A DNA stretch of 64,000 nt from Clostridiaceae bacterium (GCA_012838135.1 DUPV01000048.1:13546-77545); one strand, 5' to 3'; shown: positions 5,087 to 37,794, counted from the stretch's first letter. A program made the numbers and translations. The notes: generated by a model not told the origin, from the sequence alone.

Positions 5087-8000
5087 TCAAAATACCTGTA
5101 TCATTTCGTTTTTAAGAAATTCTTCAAGCGCTTCCGGCGGCAGGGGCTTCGAATAATAGTATCCTTGTATTTCATCGCAAGGTATACTTTTCAGTAAATC
5201 CGCTTGCCCTTTTGTTTCAACACCTTCAGCCGTAACACTCGCTTCGAAAATCCGAGCTAACGAAATAATATTTTCTGTTAAAGGAGCCCCTTTTCCTTCT
5301 ATTTCAATATAATCTATGATTTCTTTGTCTATTTTCAATCTGTCAAAAGGTACCTGTTTTAACCGATTTAATGTCGAGTAACCTTTGCCGAAATCATCTA
5401 TAACAATATGGACTCCCAATCCTTTCAATTCATATATTTTTTTGAGTACATTTTCAAGGTCTTTAGAGAACAAACTTTCTGTAATCTCCAACTCGATATA
5501 TTTCGGATCTACCTGACTTTCCTCTATAATTTTTGCAAAATCAAGAATAAAATCTGCATCTTCAAATTGCACAACCGATAAGTTTATAGAAAAGCGAAGG
5601 GGAGGAAATCCCTTTGTAATGAGTTTCTTATGTTCCAGAAGCGTCTGCTCCAATACCCAGAGTCCCACATCATAAATTAATCCCGTCTGTTCAAGTATTG
5701 GAATAAATCTATCCGGCGGTACTCTCCTGTTGTCGTCGATCGTCCATCTGAGCAAAGCTTCAACCCCGACGGTTTTTCCCGTATCACAGCTGATCTGAGG
5801 TTGAAACTCCAAAAAGAACTCTTTGTTGTCCAACGATTTAAAAAGCTTATTCGTGAACAAGGTGTTTTCCGCAATATGGCTTCCAATTCGCTCTGAATAG
5901 AATACAATATCTTCATTGTTTTTTACCGCTTCATAGCCTGCCAAATCGACGCTCTGTGAAAAAGTCATTAAATCCCTTCCGTCATCCGGATACACCGATA
6001 TGCCTATGCGGGGCACAACAAATAATGCTTCTATCTCCAGATCAGTCGATATGGGATGAGAAAAAGCAGCAAGCAATCTGTTAGCGCAGCCTTTTATCTG
6101 TTCGGTGCTTTCTACATCGGGTAAAATAAGGACAAATTCTCCATCATTTGTCCTTGAGATAGTACATGAGGGCTCTAACAGATTTCTAAGCATTGTCGCA
6201 GATTTCAACATTACTTGCTCGGCTACATCATAACCGAAGGTATCTTTAATCATCCTGATGTTTGCGAGTTCAATATTTAAAAGTGCTATTTTACCTGATT
6301 CTTTTCTGTCACGAATACTTTCCTCAAGTGTTTTTCTTAACATGTTTCTGTTCGCTAATTTTGTGGTTTCATCAAAATACGCGACATCATATAGCATTTC
6401 CTCGTAAAATGTCTTCTTTCTTGCATCCCCCAACAGATTCACAAGCATGTTTAAAAAGTTCAAGCGATTTTTGATGAGGTTCTTATCACTCCGGTCGTAA
6501 TATTCAAAGACAAGCATCCCTTCTATCGGTCCGTCTGCGAGTTGCAACGGATATGCAAAAAAGGAGTATATCTCTCTTGAAATGAGAAAATCTCTCGTTC
6601 CCTCACATTCATCAAAGGATTTATCTGTGAGGTTTTCACACATCATGGGTGTACCCTTGACAGTCAGAATTTTAGCCATGGGCAAGTCATCCATTTTAAC
6701 TTTCATTCCCGGATGATAGGGAAGTGAATTGCTCTCTAAATTTTTCGTATATGTGCTGAATACATTTGCCTCGTCATCATCCTCGCGGAATCCGATTAAA
6801 TATGCATAATCAAATTCAAGAATCTCAGCAGACATTTTTAACATCTGATCAACTTTTTCTTTAGCGTTCTCACTGCTAATCGTAATAAAATTGGTCGAAA
6901 TAGCTTCCAGCACTTGTTGTTCTTTTATTAACTTTTTATGTGCATCCAGCTTTAAAGTATATTCTTCTGCCAATCGCCGCACGGCAAAATAAGTAAGAAT
7001 AACAAGTGCAATTCTTGTCATATACTCATTTATATCGATGGTGACAGTAACTGCCGGGTAAAATGCTGAGAAATATACCTGAATTAAGATTACCAATCCG
7101 GCATAGATCATGAGATGGATTTTACTGTCGAGGATAACGGTAAACATAAAGAACAATATATAGATTGACCATATGGTCACCGCCCCTGTATCGACATTTC
7201 TTAAAATTATAAGGAATAAACTATAGGTGCCTGCAGCCAGAAACAAGGTATTCTGAAGGGTATGATTTTTCGTTATACGCGGTATGGATCTTACAAAGAT
7301 TCCAAGTGATAATAGAGTCGCTGCTATCAAAATTTCTTCTCTAATCGTTTTTTTCATGGCAAAATATCCTATGAAAAACGATAACGAACTGCCCGCTGTA
7401 AATATAGACGCAACCGTCCGAAACATGCGCATTCGATCTGCATCTGCGAGTTGGCCACTTTTTAAGGGCAAGTATACTTCCGCAGGTCTCTTAAGAAGCA
7501 GGCCGGATTTCCTCAATGTAAAAGAAAGCATTGTCACGGGCAGGATAATAAATATGATTACCGATTTGGGAACATACTTTATCCCGAGGAGTTCGGGCAC
7601 AGTTTCTGTCGCTATTCCCAAACAGAAGGGAACCAGTACGGATATTAAGAAATTCCTTGCCAGCCGCTTCTGAGGATCCTGAGGATCAATTCTGAGCCAC
7701 CAGCGAATAAGTAATAAAACACTTGTAGTCGCAAAGACCAAGTAGTATGAGATAAGCCAAATATTCACCGCGTTGCCGGAAAGTATATTTACCCAGCCGA
7801 AATCGGATTCCACCATGTGGTATTGCTTCGCCCCAAGATATCCGAAGGGCGCAAACAAAAGTATATTTATTACAGCGGGCAAATAAATTATAGTGTGCAA
7901 AATCCACTTGCGAATTGGAATTTTAGTTTCTGTCAGAAGCAGTACAAAGTGGAGTAGGATACTGTAAAAAACTCCCCATCCGAAAACGGAGAGGCATTTC

Positions 8001-23036: not shown

Positions 23037-23113
23037 GGCGCAGTAGTTCAGTTGGTTAGAATGCCAGCCTGTCACGCTGGAGGTCGAGGGTTCGAGCCCC
23101 TTCTGCGTCGCCA
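23037..23113 (+). tRNA. tRNA-Asp (GTC), encoded CCA
   Basis: Acceptor GGCGCAG/CTGCGTC, anticodon loop CTGTCAC, T-loop GGTTCGAGCCC. Confidence 0.9.
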
Positions 23114-23155
23114 TCAAGCCGGTCATTTGTAATGAGTGACCGGTTTGCACTTTAA

Positions 23156-23231
23156 GCCTGGTTAGCTCAGTCGGTAGAGCAGGGGACTGAAAATCCCCGT
23201 GTCGTTGGTTCGATTCCGACACCAGGCACCA
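23156..23231 (+). tRNA. tRNA-Phe (GAA), encoded CCA
   Basis: GCCTGGTTAGCTCAGTCGGTAGAGC..., anticodon loop CTGAAAA, T-loop GGTTCGATTCC. Confidence 0.9.
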
Positions 23232-23237
23232 TTATAT

Positions 23238-23313
23238 GGGAGTTTAGCTCAGCTGGGAGAGCATCTGCCTTACAAGCAGGGGGTCACAGGTTCAAGTCCT
23301 GTAACTCCCACCA
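23238..23313 (+). tRNA. tRNA-Val (TAC), encoded CCA
   Basis: GGGAGTTTAGCTCAGCTGGGAGAGC..., anticodon loop CTTACAA, T-loop GGTTCAAGTCC. Confidence 0.9.
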
Positions 23314-30806: not shown

Positions 30807-31892
30807 TTGTTTATGTATACGAATGAAGAAAAATGGCAACAGGAAAATCAATCACAGTCGCCGGAACAATTAAAGTTCCAAGAACAGACGCAGTTTCAGG
30901 AGCCGGCAACGCACGAAGTTCAACAAGTCTATTATCAGCAATCGTTTGGTATGGGATCGACTCATTATATCCATAAACAACAAATAGAGAATGCGGAACA
31001 TACTCAGAATTTGAACAAGAAAGTTCCGTTTTGGCGAATATGGCTCGTTTCATTTGCTTTTTTAGTATTACACCTGATTGTATTAAGTCTAAGCGGAATT
31101 ATAGCAAGTGCGATCAAAATTGCGACTAATCCGGTAAAAACACAACAAGAAATGATAAATCTTCTCATGTCCTCTGATGTTCAAAACTGGGCTTGTGTTA
31201 TCATGGGGTTAATCTGTATACCGCTTTATATTGTGTTTCTGAAAAAACGCAATCACAAATATAATGGCAGCTTGGGTTGGCATAAATTAACTATGGGATC
31301 CGTTTCAAGCATGTCACTTGCTGCAGTCGGTTCATTGGGCATGGTTACAGGTTTGCTTTTGTTACTTCAAGAATTAAGCAAGTATATACCTTATATTGAG
31401 CAAAAGCTTAAACATTATCAGGAATTGACGGAACTGGTTGTTTCAAAAGAAAGCAATATAATCTTACAAATTGTTGCAACTGCAATTATTGTGCCGATTG
31501 CGGAAGAACTTTTGTTTAGAGGGATTGTATTGGGTGAACTCAATTTTCGATATTCACCACGCACGGTCGTCCTTCTTCAAGCAGTATTATTCGGTTTATT
31601 TCATATGAATTTCGTTCAATCGCTATATACGTTTATTCCGGGATTGCTTTTGGGAATTGCATATTACTATACCGGAAACATTATCATGCCAATTATTATG
31701 CATGTTATATTTAATTTATTCGGTGGAGTTCTAACTGTGTTTTTATCGGAAAAAATCTTAAATTATATAAATTATATTGAATTGGCTACAGGATTCTTTT
31801 CGCTGATCACAATAATCATCTTTTTTATCAAAGCAAAACCCTATGCAAAACACAAACTTCAATGGGAGCGTAATTATCCGCAGAATGTTTAA
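30807..31892 (+). CDS. CPBP-family intramembrane glutamic endopeptidase (CAAX/Abi)
   Basis: Contains EELLFRG, FGLFH and HVIFN motifs in a polytopic protein with a Q-rich N-terminus. The start may be the ATG at 30813. Confidence 0.85.
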   Translation: MFMYTNEEKWQQENQSQSPEQLKFQEQTQFQEPATHEVQQVYYQQSFGMGSTHYIHKQQIENAEHTQNLNKKVPFWRIWLVSFAFLVLHLIVLSLSGIIASAIKIATNPVKTQQEMINLLMSSDVQNWACVIMGLICIPLYIVFLKKRNHKYNGSLGWHKLTMGSVSSMSLAAVGSLGMVTGLLLLLQELSKYIPYIEQKLKHYQELTELVVSKESNIILQIVATAIIVPIAEELLFRGIVLGELNFRYSPRTVVLLQAVLFGLFHMNFVQSLYTFIPGLLLGIAYYYTGNIIMPIIMHVIFNLFGGVLTVFLSEKILNYINYIELATGFFSLITIIIFFIKAKPYAKHKLQWERNYPQNV

Positions 31893-34800
31893 ACAAAGAT
31901 ATGGTAGAATTAAGAAAAGAAATTTTGTTGTATTGGCTATTTGTTTGGTAGCTGTATTGCTTCCTGTATTAATCTTGTATTTGTTTTCGACCGAAAGAGT
32001 TGAATCCGGCAATATAGCTGACTTTTCAATTAGCGATCACTCTTCACGTAAGGTTGTACAAGGCTTAGGATATGATATTGTCGCAGTTGATGATGGCAAT
32101 CTGATAAATAATAATTCTTTTGAACCTATGGTATATAAGCAGAATCTGATAGTAGACTCAGGAAACGATGAAATTATTAAGGTTGCAATGCCTAACGATC
32201 CGACAACCCGAATTTTTACAGAAAACTTTTTTGTCGATGCGAACGCTGAAGTTTTTGCAACAGATTCCGAAGGGCGTAGAGCCTTGAAAAAAAGTGGCAA
32301 AGTCAGTCAATATTTATCTGATCAAATTGATGATTTTCAACCGGTAAGCTTACCGCCGGATTTGCCAAGCAATATTCGCTGGAAGAGTATTGTCGAATCA
32401 GGCGAGAAAGTAATTCTGGGCGGGAGCAAGGGCTATATCTTGAGCATAGATTCATTTTCTTCAACATCTTTAAGTCGTTTACCTAGCGAAGAAGAGGTAA
32501 TCGGTGTTTGTGTTTTCGATGACTTGTTTTTAGCTCTCGATGAGAATGGCGGTTTTTATAAGTCTTCCGATTCACTTAAGTGGGAATTGGTTTTTCAGAT
32601 AAATGACAAGTTTTTGTTGACAAAATCGGAAGACAACTTAGAGGAAAATACGGAGGCATCAACAAGTAGAACAGATGATGTTGTAACATCGACTGATAAA
32701 ACAGATGTTGCTGAAACGTTGATAAATAAAATTAATGACACTGAAACATCAACGAGTAAAACAGATAGTTTCGCAATATCAACGGGTAAAACAGATGTTG
32801 AAATTGGAGCAGAGCCATCAGAAAATATTAAATGGCTGGATTTAAGTTCAAGAATTGATGAGCAGGGCAATTCCATATTCATGGCAGTTGGTGAGGCAGG
32901 TTTTGTTTTATATGGAAATCTGGAAAAAAACGACACTAAAAGACTTGTAACTTCACAAAATATTAATGCAGTAACTTCAAATTCCGACGGGTTTTATTTG
33001 GTCGGGGACAATTCTTTAGCATTTTATTCATATGACGGAGAGAACTATCGATATTTAGATATTCCGCAAAAAGCGAATTGGCAAGCGGTTTCTTCACGAG
33101 GCCATCAAGTCATGATCGCAGGTGATCAAGGACAGGTAGTTTTCAGCAAAGACGGCTATTCATTTGATTCTTTGAATAATGAAACGCTCAGTGAACTTTC
33201 CTTGCAACATACTGAGCAAAACCATGATGATCAGGAAGTCATTGTAATTAAACCGCATTTTGTTTCTTGTAGTATATTGAGCAACAACCAATTTATCTTG
33301 CTTGATTCACGTGGTATATCGTTTTATTCTGATAATTTCGGAGAAACCTGGAAAAATTTTAGTAATCTTGCCACGAGCAAATTTAATCTTGTGCAAAGAT
33401 TGCCGAGCGGAAGATTGTTGATGACGGGATTAGACGGCGGAATTGAATATGCCATTATGGGTTTAGTTATAAAGCTTGACAGTAAATTGGAACAAGGAAC
33501 ATATGAAAATGGTGATTTATTAGTTCTGGAGCAGATTTCGACTACACCGATTATTCAACCGAAAATAGAAGAATCAGAAACTCTGATTGGTGACTGGTAT
33601 ATCAGTAATCCGTCTGCTGTGCAGATTCAATTAAATCATAATGCACCTGATGGAGGCAGAGCGGCTCTTGAAATAGATTTGTCCCGAAAATCAAATTCCG
33701 AAAATGAACTTACAGGCTTGTTTAGTCAACAGATTATTGAGCATCAGATTCCGCAAAATGCGGGTTTGATTATTCAACAAAAGTTGGAAGATACCGCATA
33801 TACAAATATTAAAAACAATACAATTTTTAGTTTTGAATTTTGGGCAAAATTCGACTCTGATGACTCAGCCAATCTGAACCTTTCATTTGAGGGCTTAAAC
33901 TTGCAAATTGAACAATTTAACAAAAACATTTCCGGTGACTGGGAAAAGTATCAAGGTTTTTTTGTAATTCCCAAGAATTCGCTCAGAGAAGATAAATCAC
34001 TCTGGTTGCGGATTGAGCTTAACGGTTCCGGTAAACTTTATTTGGATAATTTATGGTTCGGTGCGGCAGATAATTCAGGAAAAAATATTCTGGCAAATTT
34101 ATCTGACGATTTTTCCAAAGGCTCAATTTTGCGTTTAGATTTTGTTCCAATCGGCAGTAAAGAATATCATTCTGAAAGTTGGTTGTCCTCTGAAAAATAT
34201 TACAGTTCATATTATCAGGATAAAAAGGGAATCAAACTTCAAGGTCAAGCTAATTTAGCAAAAAGCATGGAGCTTTGTAACTCGTTTAACGCTAATCCCT
34301 GGTTGCTTATTGACTCTCAAGCATCAGATAGCGAATTAAAAAATTTGATGCAGTATTTATTCGGTCAACAGAGCACACCGCTCGGGGAATTACGTACCGT
34401 ACATGGTGCGTTAAGCCGTTACAGTGATATTTTTAATCAAATATATATTGAAATAGGCGATCAAAATGGACTTTTAGAAAATGATTGGCAGCGTAAATCA
34501 TATGTAAATTGGGTTGTTCAGATTTTATCGGAGACACCGGAATATGCGCAAGTAAAGAAAAATTTGATTTTTGTGGACGGTATGCAATATAAAGATAATA
34601 TTATTTTATCTGATGCCGATTATCATGCATCAGATTTCAATTTGGATAGCAGAATCAATAATCTAACTGACTTAAAACAATTCAATAAAAATTTTACGGA
34701 ATCATTGCCCAGAGATCCGAGGAGAGGAACAGCAACTCGTTCCGAACTGATTCGTCAGACCAATCAGAATTTCGAAGAAATCAGATTGGCCGATGTAATT

Positions 34801-35205
34801 GCAACAGCTTTAAGCATGATGGGCGATGAAATTGATGCGACTTTACTGAATCTTGATTTAACGTCGGATTCGATGACAAATCCTTATGCGCATTGTTATG
34901 GCAATATAGGTAAAGCGATTTCAGATATGAATCCGTACACTTTAACTTCCGGTATTAAACAGGATAATGTATCAGCCTATGCCTATGGTTCCGGCAACAG
35001 ACGGGTTATTGTTTTGGTAAATTTCTCTGAAATGTCATCCAGCTGTCAGATTTTCAATATTGACCTCAAAGGATTCAGGCAATCAATCTATGATGCAAAA
35101 GGTGCCGTTCTTGAACAATCTAAGGTCAGACATCGTAAATCGGTTTATTCACTTTTGCCCGGCGGAGTTATTGTGCTTGAGGGAACGTTAGAGAAAAACA
35201 AATAA
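31885..35205 (+). CDS. Large membrane-anchored extracellular protein with BNR/Asp-box propeller-like region, CBM-like module and GH-like C-terminal domain
   Basis: N-terminal TM helix, Asp-box-like SDNFGETW plus related YSYDGENY and FSKDGYSF, then a jelly-roll-like segment (FEFWAKF...LYLDNLWFG). ATG at 31885 overlaps the upstream stop (ATGTTTAA). Confidence 0.6.
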   Translation: MFKQRYGRIKKRNFVVLAICLVAVLLPVLILYLFSTERVESGNIADFSISDHSSRKVVQGLGYDIVAVDDGNLINNNSFEPMVYKQNLIVDSGNDEIIKVAMPNDPTTRIFTENFFVDANAEVFATDSEGRRALKKSGKVSQYLSDQIDDFQPVSLPPDLPSNIRWKSIVESGEKVILGGSKGYILSIDSFSSTSLSRLPSEEEVIGVCVFDDLFLALDENGGFYKSSDSLKWELVFQINDKFLLTKSEDNLEENTEASTSRTDDVVTSTDKTDVAETLINKINDTETSTSKTDSFAISTGKTDVEIGAEPSENIKWLDLSSRIDEQGNSIFMAVGEAGFVLYGNLEKNDTKRLVTSQNINAVTSNSDGFYLVGDNSLAFYSYDGENYRYLDIPQKANWQAVSSRGHQVMIAGDQGQVVFSKDGYSFDSLNNETLSELSLQHTEQNHDDQEVIVIKPHFVSCSILSNNQFILLDSRGISFYSDNFGETWKNFSNLATSKFNLVQRLPSGRLLMTGLDGGIEYAIMGLVIKLDSKLEQGTYENGDLLVLEQISTTPIIQPKIEESETLIGDWYISNPSAVQIQLNHNAPDGGRAALEIDLSRKSNSENELTGLFSQQIIEHQIPQNAGLIIQQKLEDTAYTNIKNNTIFSFEFWAKFDSDDSANLNLSFEGLNLQIEQFNKNISGDWEKYQGFFVIPKNSLREDKSLWLRIELNGSGKLYLDNLWFGAADNSGKNILANLSDDFSKGSILRLDFVPIGSKEYHSESWLSSEKYYSSYYQDKKGIKLQGQANLAKSMELCNSFNANPWLLIDSQASDSELKNLMQYLFGQQSTPLGELRTVHGALSRYSDIFNQIYIEIGDQNGLLENDWQRKSYVNWVVQILSETPEYAQVKKNLIFVDGMQYKDNIILSDADYHASDFNLDSRINNLTDLKQFNKNFTESLPRDPRRGTATRSELIRQTNQNFEEIRLADVIATALSMMGDEIDATLLNLDLTSDSMTNPYAHCYGNIGKAISDMNPYTLTSGIKQDNVSAYAYGSGNRRVIVLVNFSEMSSSCQIFNIDLKGFRQSIYDAKGAVLEQSKVRHRKSVYSLLPGGVIVLEGTLEKNK

Positions 35206-35225: not shown

Positions 35226-36410
35226 ATGATTGATGATTTTACGCAACTTTATTATTTGGATTCATATCAAAGCGAATTTACAGCAGAAGTAACAGCCGTT
35301 AGAAAAGAAAAAAATAAGATTTGGTTATCCCTGTCTCAGACTTGTTTTTATCCGGAAGGTGGTGGTCAACCGGGTGACCGGGGAATCTTGCAAGTGATCA
35401 AACCGAACAAGCAAGTTGTAAAGGTTTTTGATACCATTTGGTCTGACGATGTAATTTGGCATCAAGTTGATCTATTGTTGGCAAAAGGTACATCAGTCGT
35501 CGGTCAAATCGATTTTGCCAAACGTTATGATTTAATGCAGCAACATAGTGGCGAACACATTTTTTCCGGTATTGTAAATCGTGAATATGGCTATACAAAT
35601 GTAGGCTTTAATATTAATTCAACCGAGATGACATTTGATTTTGACGGAGATCTAAATTGGGAACAAATAGCAGAAGTAGAAAATGAAGCAAATCAAGCTA
35701 TCTACGAAAATATTCCAATTGAGATTCGTTATATTACTCAGTCAGAACATGATGCCTGGACCTATCGGAGCAAATTACAACTTGAGCAAAACATCAGACT
35801 GGTAATTATTCCGGGCTATGATACATGTGCATGTGCAGGTACACACCTTGCTCGTACCGGAGAAATCGGTCAAATCAAGATTATTAAACGTGAATCTTAT
35901 AAAGGTGGCGTTCGCTTAACAGCTCTATGCGGTGCAAGAGCATTACACTATTTTCAAAACATTCTTCAAGTTATGCAAAGTGTTGGTGAGGTTATGTCTG
36001 CCAATCCGGAAAATTTGTTGGAAAAAATACACAATCAACAATCTGAAATTTCCGATTTAAAATTTCAAGTCAACAAAAAAAATAAAGCATGGTTGGATCT
36101 GTTCATGCAAACACTGCAACCGAAGACTAAAAGAATAATATTAACCAATCCCGAGTTTGCCAAACATGAATGGAAATATGCATGCCAATATTTAAGCGAA
36201 CATGTAAGTGAATTTGCCGGCATTTTAACTTCAGTAGCCCAATCTAAACAGCTTTTATTTCTATGTTCTGAAACACAAGATCTGCGAATAATGATTCCAA
36301 AATTAGAAGAAAAATTTAACTTCAAAGGTGGAGGAAATGCAACTTTGATCCAAGGTTTGTTACAAGCAGAGTTGCCGATAATTGAAAAATTTTTAAATGA
36401 AATACCTTAA
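35226..36410 (+). CDS. alaX: Alanyl-tRNA editing protein, AlaX-L type
   Basis: Contains HSGEHIFSG (HxxxH) and CACAGTH (CxxxH) zinc motifs and a C-terminal GGG(N) DHHA1-like motif. Confidence 0.8.
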   Translation: MIDDFTQLYYLDSYQSEFTAEVTAVRKEKNKIWLSLSQTCFYPEGGGQPGDRGILQVIKPNKQVVKVFDTIWSDDVIWHQVDLLLAKGTSVVGQIDFAKRYDLMQQHSGEHIFSGIVNREYGYTNVGFNINSTEMTFDFDGDLNWEQIAEVENEANQAIYENIPIEIRYITQSEHDAWTYRSKLQLEQNIRLVIIPGYDTCACAGTHLARTGEIGQIKIIKRESYKGGVRLTALCGARALHYFQNILQVMQSVGEVMSANPENLLEKIHNQQSEISDLKFQVNKKNKAWLDLFMQTLQPKTKRIILTNPEFAKHEWKYACQYLSEHVSEFAGILTSVAQSKQLLFLCSETQDLRIMIPKLEEKFNFKGGGNATLIQGLLQAELPIIEKFLNEIP

Positions 36411-36508
36411 AAATCAATTCTGAAGGAAGAAAAATTGTTCAAATAGCACAAGAAAACTTGATATTTCTAATCAATTATCCAAATTTCAAGAAAAGACTAA
36501 TTTACTCC

Positions 36509-36537
36509 TTGACCTAAATCAAAGTGATGCATATACT
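36509..36537 (+). promoter_or_regulatory. Near-consensus sigma-A promoter inside an ORF-free gap
   Basis: TTGACC, 17-nt spacer, TATACT. Predicted +1 near 36544. Confidence 0.5.
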
Positions 36538-36543
36538 ATAGAC

Positions 36544-37192
36544 AAGCTTCAGGGAATTCTAAAAAACCTTGATCGGAAACCTAAGCACCATGAAAATGGT
36601 TCGGGATGGCAGTAACTTGATAACTGAACATTTAGCTGGCAAAGGAAGAGTCGAAATTACCTAAAGGTAAAGGTGGTCTGTACAAGAGGCTGAAATGGTA
36701 TAACAAACATGACTATTAACTTAAAAGCTATTAACTAGTTGAATATTAGATGAAATAATAGCTGAAAATAATGAAAGTAAATAGTAAAGTATTCGATCTA
36801 ACATCAGATACCAATTGAAATATTCTAGTTAACACCCTTGTGACTATAGATCTTAAGAAAAATCATAGAAGGATCATTGATTGATCAGAAACACAATGAT
36901 TAAATAAATGAATTGCCGGCTTGAACAACTATCATTAAAGAAGTAATAAAAAATGAATGTTAAGTTGCGTATTGTAAATGCTAAGTTAGAAAGATGATTG
37001 CAAGTCAAACAATTGAATAAAGACATAGGGTTCAACAGCATACGAGAATGTATAAAAAACGTCTGAAGTACTGTTGGTAAAATGGTAACATAGCCTGGAA
37101 TGTAGTAAGTTCAAGAGTTGGATAAAAAAAGTTCCGTTAATGTAAGAGAGTGACGATTTAAGAGTTGGCAGGTTCGCTGAAGCTTTTTTATT
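36544..37192 (+). ncRNA. Candidate ~650-nt structured non-coding RNA (unclassified)
   Basis: No ORF of 60 aa or more in any frame. The + strand is purine-rich and C-poor. The 5' AAGCTTCAG (36544-52) is complementary to CTGAAGCTT (37177-85), which is followed by a T-run, and there are several perfect local helices. Confidence 0.3.
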
Positions 37193-37260
37193 TGCTCAAA
37201 AAATTCGGAAAATCACTTATAAGATTCGCATAATAATAAGTTTTTTATAAAACATCAATT

Positions 37261-37794
37261 CTAATCTGTTGCATCCAGTTTTTTGATGTAGCCGAGATTG
37301 CGATATTGTTCTTTATAATCAAGTCCGTACCCGACGAGTCTGGTATAATCAATTTCAAATCCGATATATTTTAGAGGAAGATTGATCATTAACTGATCCG
37401 GATTAGCAAACATAGCGACCAGAGTGATGCTTGCGGGATTAAATTTTTCTAAATGCTCAAACATAAAATGAGTTGTCAGTCCGGAACGGACTATTTCTTC
37501 AACAACCAGAACATCATTTCCTGTAATGTCAATTTCAATATCACGGGTAACTTGAACAATATTTGTTGCCGACTTAACTTGACTGATTGCCATAAAATCG
37601 AATTTTAGCGGCAGCTTAATTGCACGTGTAAGATCTGCTAAAAAATAAGTGGAGCCTTTGAGCATTGCGATAACGCTAAAAGGTCTTTTTGAATCCTGAT
37701 AATCTTGGGTAATTTGTTGTCCGAGTTCGATGATTCTTTTTGCGATTTGTTGTTCGGTAAATAAAATTTCATTATTTTCCAGATTTTCCAGCAT
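37261..37794 (-). CDS. hpt: Hypoxanthine(-guanine) phosphoribosyltransferase
   Basis: 177 aa with the PRPP-binding loop VLVVEEIVRSGLT and a C-terminal GYGLDY motif. Confidence 0.88.
   Translation of the reverse strand: MLENLENNEILFTEQQIAKRIIELGQQITQDYQDSKRPFSVIAMLKGSTYFLADLTRAIKLPLKFDFMAISQVKSATNIVQVTRDIEIDITGNDVLVVEEIVRSGLTTHFMFEHLEKFNPASITLVAMFANPDQLMINLPLKYIGFEIDYTRLVGYGLDYKEQYRNLGYIKKLDATD

Follow-up and report, generated by a model that had tools for sequence, protein, structure and literature searches.

The 850-bp gap between the stop codons of an alaX-like gene and hpt (36411-37260) very probably holds a genuine structured non-coding RNA gene of a new family, 0.5-0.65 kb long and on the + strand. 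We show below how the gene is organised, that it is non-coding and conserved, and what secondary structure its RNA has; its transcription and function are inferred, without transcript data. We class it as a new family within a known kind, the large structured orphan bacterial non-coding RNAs (ncRNAs). Positions are counted from the first letter of the window, that is, the whole 64-kb stretch of DNA that was analysed.

Taken alone, the promoter match, the complementary 9-mers at the two ends and the fold energy are each at chance level, so the case rests on relatives. These cues become more than chance because the promoter hexamers, the predicted +1 and both terminal strands are kept in 13 diverged homologs.

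Gap composition and genomic setting

The gap has no open reading frame (ORF) of 60 aa or more, as the original prediction had claimed from the window sequence; among ORFs initiated by ATG, GTG or TTG, the longest reach 31 aa (+ strand) and 55 aa (- strand). The + strand had also been described as A/G-rich and C-poor, which agrees with its base composition (A 41%, G 18-20%, C 12-13%, with 3 C in 36721-36780) and with a purine content of 59-61%, against 53% in the whole window. Every sequence string quoted in that prediction was found exactly where it had been placed. Tandem repeats in the gap amount to merely two weak A-rich 12-mers.

The RNA is set among chromosomal housekeeping genes. No gene lies 3' of it on the same (+) strand, and no oapA-like, reverse-transcriptase or tRNA gene adjoins it, the closest tRNA being 13 kb off (23238-23310).

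Homologs, distribution and conservation

The AlaX-like protein served as the anchor for collecting relatives. Loci were taken from species-representative genomes, the nearest of which are labelled Saccharofermentanales or 'Clostridiaceae bacterium', and contigs encoding less and less similar AlaX proteins were added, covering identities of 85% to 45%. We recovered 13 distinct full-length homologs of 490-665 nt from uncultured Saccharofermentanales/'Clostridiaceae' metagenome-assembled genomes (MAGs), with partial copies also seen at contig ends. The source lineage is one of uncultured Clostridia MAGs from biogas and anaerobic-digester metagenomes. Each homolog lies directly downstream of an alaX-like gene (AlaX identity 45-85%), and the gene-free gap of 650-1100 bp that follows alaX at every locus fetched contains the same element in all cases. 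nhmmer E-values range from 1e-19 to 1e-24 for the 5' block of full-length copies and from 1e-34 to 1e-48 for the 3' block.

Searches beyond this group returned little. With the 5' and 3' blocks, nhmmer detected no RNA beside the remoter alaX genes of 76 loci with AlaX identity of at most 43% (Cellulosilyticum, Oscillospiraceae, Lachnospiraceae and others), and profiles of the same blocks revealed no second copy or paralog in the window or in ~100 loci; each locus has a single copy, whose syntenic position does not vary. In the JGI metagenome collection, an exact-pattern scan yielded only four further instances, from the same lineages. Nothing similar was found by blastn in phage and plasmid collections, and a scan of a viral collection with the 5' pattern gave no match. 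A single viral match (IMGVR_UViG_3300031994_000001, 413 kb; locus L100, 3634-3691) lies inside densely coding DNA and was rejected as chance; it came from a 20-base two-part RNA pattern, and matches to such patterns need the locus itself to be read. All 13 sequences come from a single lineage, in which they cover about five clades, and the family is so far limited to one narrow group of uncultured biogas-reactor Clostridia.

In most comparisons the nucleotide identity of the RNA core equals or exceeds that of the adjoining alaX coding sequence (0.91 versus 0.77 in homolog L008, 0.62 versus 0.55 in L011), the exceptions being L095 and L102 (RNA core 0.60, alaX 0.62). At one locus (L094) the RNA stays with alaX although the downstream hpt is replaced. 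The constant linkage to alaX may be functional or may simply be inherited synteny, and the data cannot distinguish the two.

Promoter and predicted transcript start

A promoter aimed into the gap, TTGACC-17-TATACT, was part of the original prediction, and it is kept in the homologs (Table 1). The two hexamers match the consensus at 10 of 12 positions; the spacer is 17 nt long in 12 of the 13 homologs and 16 nt in the other, and the distance from the -10 hexamer to AAGCTT is exactly 6 nt in all of them. Spacer and discriminator bases vary freely. The RNA thus has its own promoter, conserved in position and geometry in 13 of 13 homologs, as expected of an independently transcribed ncRNA gene, and the fixed 6-nt distance to AAGCUU places the start of the conserved RNA at the predicted +1 (A36544). 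If the hexamers act as a sigma-A-type promoter, transcription would begin at or next to this base. Promoter-like sites as such are uninformative in this gap, with 7 observed and 6.8 expected from shuffles, and both the +1 and the 3' end remain predictions without transcript evidence.

The conserved element might instead be a structured 3' untranslated region (UTR) or cis element of the alaX mRNA, made by read-through and possibly processed, with no gene of its own. In favour of this, the RNA invariably comes next after alaX on the same strand and keeps alaX as its neighbour at the locus where hpt is replaced. No terminator was detected between the two, which leaves co-transcription possible. 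We nevertheless regard this reading as unlikely: a read-through product does not explain why every homolog retains the hexamers, their spacing and the 6 nt leading to the first paired base while the bases around them diverge, why the conserved structure starts exactly at the predicted +1, or why the 98 nt between the alaX stop codon and the -35 hexamer are far less conserved.

Within those 98 nt is a block (ATTGTTCAAATAGCACAAG) that is partly conserved across all clades as TTGT..N9..ACAA, with GCA-AA invariant. It resembles Rex-type operators (TTGTTAA-N4-TTAACAA) and could serve the RNA gene as a regulator site, its membership of that gene being uncertain.

Ends of the RNA

The last conserved base is T37185, after which a T-run extends to 37189. 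The 9-mer at the predicted +1, AAGCTTCAG (36544-36552), and its complement before the T-run, CTGAAGCTT (37177-37185), had been proposed to let the two transcript ends pair beside a U-tract. Extended to 14 pairs as P1/P1b, this helix is 100% paired across the 13 sequences, and the U-run 3' of it is likewise present in every homolog. Thirteen of the 14 pairs are invariant and one shifts from U-A to U-G. The opening 16 nt (AAGCUUCAGGGAAUUC) are identical in all copies; the closing 15 nt (GGUUCGCUGAAGCUU) show a single A/G difference, with the pair kept as U-G. Since the helix never covaries, complementarity and position are the only grounds on which P1 pairing is inferred. The warning issued with the original prediction, that one complementary 9-mer is roughly a chance event, was apt, as the gap contains 4 inverted 9-mer pairs where shuffles contain 3.1.

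In the model that we infer, the opening 15 nt would pair with the closing 15 nt, so that the mature RNA would be a closed structure, with the 14-bp P1/P1b clamping the ends of a stand-alone product. The U-run is probably involved in terminating transcription or in defining the 3' end, again by inference. No local GC hairpin terminator was detected before the U-run at the 3' end of the RNA, and for this reason we suggest the long-range P1 helix as terminator stem or 3'-end definer. Several homologs (L010, at about 5822-5865, L097, L092, L008 and L009) carry a GC-rich canonical hairpin and T-run 5-60 nt past the U-run of the RNA, so the true 3' end may lie beyond 37190; the window itself has only a weak AU hairpin (ACTTAT/ATAAGT) and T6 near 37199-37230.

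Secondary structure

We obtained the fold from averaged pair probabilities of the 13 sequences, from RNAalifold and from individual folds, all of which converge on one nested architecture (Table 1).

Table 1 Features of the RNA gene and its flanking genes, in window coordinates
Feature	Position	Strand	Sequence or content	Basis and remarks
AlaX-like tRNA-editing protein gene	35226-36410	+	394 aa	tRNA-synt_2c/tRNA_SAD domains
Upstream block	36434-36452	+	ATTGTTCAAATAGCACAAG	Alignments; between alaX stop and promoter; partly conserved
-35 hexamer	36509-36514	+	TTGACC	TTGAC invariant in 13/13 homologs; spacer sequence diverges
-10 hexamer	36532-36537	+	TATACT	TATACT in 12/13 homologs, TAAACT in one
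Conserved RNA body	36544-37185	+	642 nt	Alignments; +1 predicted at or next to A36544
P1/P1b, 5' strand	36544-36558	+	AAGCUUCAG-G-GAAUU	Pairs with 37171-37185
P2, 5' strand	36569-36575	+	UUGAUCG	Pairs with 37154-37160; hand-aligned table
Hairpin HP1	36588-36599	+	CCAU-GAAA-AUGG	Sequence blocks, alignment, pair counts
P2c	36602-36606 with 37132-37136	+	CGGGA/UUCCG	93.8% paired; G-U alternating with A-U
P3/P3b, 5' strands	36609-36618	+	GCAGU, AACUU	Partners 36997-37001, 36983-36987
Variable expansion domain	36635-36920	+		Size and sequence clade-dependent
Pv1	36635-36642 with 36913-36920	+	GCUGGCAA/UUGCCGGC	Closes the variable domain
Hairpin P8	36926-36967	+	CAACU/AGUUG and UCAUU/AAUGA, A-rich loop	Conserved; modest support
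3' domain, P4-P7	36999-37142	+		Folds, covariance model R1, alignment A6
P4	37004-37018 with 37109-37123	+		
P5	37023-37026 with 37100-37103	+		
P6	37028-37031 with 37093-37096	+		
P7	37033-37047 with 37062-37076	+		
P2, 3' strand	37154-37160	+	CGAUUUA	Hand-aligned table
P1/P1b, 3' strand	37171-37185	+	GGUUC-G-CUGAAGCUU	U-run directly after
hpt	37261-37794	-		Pribosyltran domain

Inside P1, P2 and P2c lead to a junction with two arms. The first, P3/Pv1, bears a stretch of 250-400 nt, in part a lineage-variable expansion; the second is the conserved 3' domain of ~145 nt (P4-P7). P2c encloses both main domains. The stretch from P3b to P3 measures 249-400 nt among the homologs, one pair of P3/P3b alternates between U-A, U-G and C-G, and in the closest clade Pv1 changes from G-C to A-U and from U-G to C-G or U-A. 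Independent minimum-free-energy (MFE) folds of the 3' domain give the same architecture in 13 of 13 homologs. The loop of HP1 is of the GNRA type in close relatives (GAAA, GUGA or GUAA), and the hairpin is shortened in the remaining clades.

Four local helices had been singled out in the original prediction and all exist at the positions given for them, with unequal standing in the family. UUACC/GGUAA and CAACAG/CUGUUG are supported by compensatory changes. AGCUAUUA/UAAUAGCU and AUCAUUG/CAAUGAU, which like UUACC/GGUAA are held in the variable domain, fall outside the conserved core; they belong to the lineage-specific expansion and are deleted or different in most homologs.

Several joining strands are invariant in sequence: GGGAAUUC, GGCAGUAACUUGA, UGCAAGU, GGGUUC, GGUAAAA, AAAAAA-UUCCGUUAAUG and AGGUUCGCUG. 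Presumably they build the tertiary core or a binding surface. A further element, AACCU at 36580-36584, is complementary to the invariant GGGUU at 37028-37032, with zero mismatches in 13 of 13 homologs; its version in relatives is AAUCU, AACCC or GAUUC, and GCCU (37093-37096), the local P6 partner, is a rival for the same site. The pairing with GGGUU could be a pseudoknot or an alternative pairing, on weak evidence, since all the changes are one-sided transitions. In the homolog L097 (1232-1300, - strand)/L101, GAGAGAAGAUCAUA is duplicated in tandem at the P2 3' strand and the 3' domain has a 31-nt insertion, from which we infer that the RNA tolerates insertions at those points.

Covariation and fold statistics

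The homologous alaX-hpt regions, which had been named as the place to look for covariation, contain compensatory changes. We counted them on a plain MAFFT alignment without structure fitting (A3), against slid controls, with the 3' partners displaced by 1-3 columns. For the 55 proposed pairs the paired fraction is 95.8%, compared with 21-44% after sliding. Two-sided (compensatory) changes occur at ten pairs and in 29 cells, versus 1-3 pairs and 1-3 cells in the slid controls, and the covariation score is 0.186 versus 0.015-0.041. Not one of 500 shuffles reached the observed paired fraction, the number of cells with two-sided changes or the covariation score. Phylogeny is not taken into account by the shuffles, and the same 13 sequences were used in deriving part of the structure. 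For the 3' domain, counted with covariance model R1 and alignment A6, the paired fraction is 75% (21-43% slid), 12 pairs have two-sided changes (3-7 slid) and the score is 0.183 (0.03-0.10 slid).

From the raw full-length alignment RNAalifold recovers the structure only in part, because MAFFT misaligns several helices. Realignment with the covariance model fixed the register of the 3' domain only partly, and P2, P4a and P5 were therefore tabulated by hand. In the hand alignment, position 6 of P2 is C-G (8 sequences), U-A (3) or G-C (2) and position 7 is G-C (6) or A-U (3); P4a has C-G or U-A at one point and A-U or G-C at another; P5 reads ACAU/AUGU or ACCA/UGGU; P7b has U-A, A-U or C-G; and the UUACC/GGUAA helix changes from C-G to U-A. 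Homolog L011 has exchanged both partners in four of the six P4b pairs (UUGAAU/GUUCAA to UAAGUU/AACUUA).

Invariant G-U pairs are present in P1b and as the first pair of P4. Together with the change from U-A to U-G in P1, they fit a transcript of the + strand only. Stability is uninformative, with MFE z-scores of -1.2 for the + strand and -1.55 for the - strand.

Proposed function and significance

Action in trans, as a stable RNA or the core of a ribonucleoprotein (RNP) and not as a base-pairing regulator or mRNA leader, is inferred only, and is at best an even call. We base it on four features: the size of the RNA, the closure of its ends, the unpaired segments that do not vary and the lack of a downstream gene on its strand. 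Invariant unpaired stretches at junctions, GNRA loops and tolerated expansions are typical of tertiary-core RNAs that bind a partner or catalyse a reaction, and these features lead us to favour a trans-acting stable RNA or RNP core. The alternatives, namely a ribozyme, an alaX 3'-UTR element, a divergent known RNA and a decayed gene, are less likely.

A self-processing or catalytic RNA, with the invariant ends as processing sites and not simply transcript ends, would account for the conservation of the terminal 15-16 nt on each side beyond the needs of pairing, and the GNRA loops and many invariant unpaired nucleotides are as typical of this kind of tertiary-core RNA. No known ribozyme model matches, however, and there is no experimental evidence; moreover, the conserved promoter puts the +1 at the first paired base, which makes 5' processing unnecessary. 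A ribozyme in this sense seems improbable.

More tentatively still than trans action itself, the gap RNA can be read as opening a new class of large 'ornate' bacterial RNAs, similar in complexity to OLE, ROOL and GOLLD, of which it would be the first example. It would then carry out a sophisticated biochemical task, as a ribozyme, an RNP core or a self-assembling RNA particle and not as a simple antisense RNA, and the invariant terminal helix would be both an end-protecting clamp and a long-range terminator stem. We consider this possible, with the balance somewhat against it.

Bacterial ncRNAs longer than ~400 nt with elaborate conserved folds are rare, and to our knowledge almost every studied example is a ribozyme, an RNP core or, lately, a self-assembling RNA particle. 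The new family offers a compact test case, since its shortest natural form is 490 nt and its variable expansion is clearly separable. It also illustrates that uncultured lineages still conceal such RNAs, to which thermodynamic screens and Rfam annotation are blind there. Because anaerobic digesters commonly harbour the host organisms, metagenome and metatranscriptome data in which expression could be looked for are plentiful. Its importance is limited by its restriction so far to one narrow lineage and by the lack of functional data, and its interest is mainly for RNA specialists.

Comparison with known RNA families

We ran cmscan with the 4227 models of Rfam 15, at gathering scores on the window and at E<=10 with permissive filters on the gap and eight diverged homologs. 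No match in the RNA was obtained at gathering score in the window or at E<=10 in the gap and the eight homologs, where the output consisted of chance snoRNA-type noise only. The absence of any recognisable family, which the original prediction had judged by eye, therefore persists when OLE, ROOL, GOLLD and raiA models are included. Full-text literature searches found no published description of such an RNA.

The named families were considered individually. In the window and the eight homologs there was no covariance-model match to OLE (RF01071), and no oapA lies downstream; ROOL had no covariance-model match, no nearby tRNA and no phage or viral similarity; GOLLD had no covariance-model match and does not suit the length (490-665 nt) or the chromosomal housekeeping context; and raiA motif RNA had no covariance-model match in the same sequences. 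Bacterial RNase P RNA (types A and B) was not matched even at E<=10, nor were 6S RNA and signal recognition particle (SRP) RNA by any Rfam model, again in the window and the eight homologs. For tmRNA there was no Rfam match, and ARAGORN found neither tmRNA nor tRNA in 36300-37400. T-box and group II intron models were without a match, and the RNA has neither a downstream gene on its strand nor an intron-encoded ORF. With no Rfam or ARAGORN match and without the characteristic gene neighbourhoods, the RNA is not a member of any of these families.

OLE is highly structured, has many invariant unpaired nucleotides, is found in anaerobic Bacillota and was long of unknown function (PMC9723947, PMC12286853). 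The gap RNA is like it in length (about 600 nt), in its high degree of structure, in its many invariant unpaired nucleotides and in its anaerobic Bacillota hosts. The oapA gene lies immediately downstream of OLE, whereas the gap RNA has alaX-like and hpt neighbours and no gene for an oapA-type membrane protein; it differs further in its far narrower taxonomic range and in the invariant terminal helix that closes its ends.

ROOL and GOLLD are large ornate RNAs that form homo-oligomers (PMC12286853). The gap RNA shares with them its large size (0.5-0.8 kb), its inferred independent transcription, ornate character, Bacillota hosts and lack of an assigned biochemical function, as well as a conserved core ringed by lineage-variable expansion segments. 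ROOL is often near tRNAs or in prophages, and GOLLD, of about 800 nt, has a prophage context; the gap RNA, by contrast, is outside prophages and without tRNA neighbours.

The raiA motif RNA (RF03072) is a structured stand-alone Bacillota ncRNA of unknown biochemistry (PMC10861870, PMC11706538), and in all these respects the gap RNA is alike. They differ in size and range: raiA RNAs are about 200 nt long and occur in thousands of species, the gap RNA measures 490-665 nt and is known from one lineage.

In RNase P, 6S, tmRNA and SRP RNAs the 5' and 3' ends pair. The gap RNA likewise has a terminal helix formed from both ends, and its gene stands alone behind a strong constitutive-type promoter, but the RNA is found in one lineage only and is not universal. 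On direct reading it also lacks the universally conserved P4 strands of RNase P, the tRNA-like domain or tag ORF of tmRNA and the central-bubble dimensions of 6S RNA.

Could a very divergent OLE, ROOL, GOLLD, raiA, RNase P, tmRNA, 6S or SRP RNA, or a group II intron remnant, have been missed by the models? The size and the Firmicutes/anaerobe host recall OLE and ROOL, and paired ends are shared with the four RNAs just named, yet the silence of all 4227 families at E<=10, the negative ARAGORN result and the absence of oapA-like, reverse-transcriptase or tRNA neighbours make this very unlikely.

Coding potential

Close relatives differ by many 1-2-nt indels, and their substitutions favour none of the three codon phases and show no 3-nt periodicity. 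A Pfam search of six-frame fragments gave no real match, a BLOC1_2 hit (E=0.03; 15 bits, where the cut-off is 33) being sub-threshold and taken as noise. These three observations exclude a decayed gene, a check for which the original prediction had recommended a translated search. A decayed protein gene, or a mobile-element remnant with the two 9-mers as terminal inverted repeats, is hardly credible: the strand is purine-rich like the coding strands of the + strand genes of the window, and the ends are inverted repeats, but in addition to the indels, even substitutions and lack of Pfam matches, phage and plasmid collections hold nothing similar, each locus has a single syntenic copy without paralogs, and the compensatory changes and G-U pairs point to an RNA fold as the target of selection.

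Other features of the window

The only Rfam matches across the 64-kb window are tRNA genes, namely a cluster of three and one long-arm tRNA (23037-23310 and 2906-2994). The AlaX-like proteins of the RNA-bearing lineage (that of the window and P0001-P0015) are without a precomputed DHHA1 (PF02272) match in their C-terminal third; such a match is present in many remoter AlaX homologs, whose loci lack a nearby RNA.

A 1120-aa ORF without a confident Pfam domain occupies 30807-35205. Its start overlaps by 50 nt the 3' end of a 361-aa ORF, the called product of which is 359 aa long and has an Rce1-like (CPBP) match. The 1120-aa ORF sits 5' of alaX at every homologous locus, and the block of large protein, alaX and RNA is therefore conserved.
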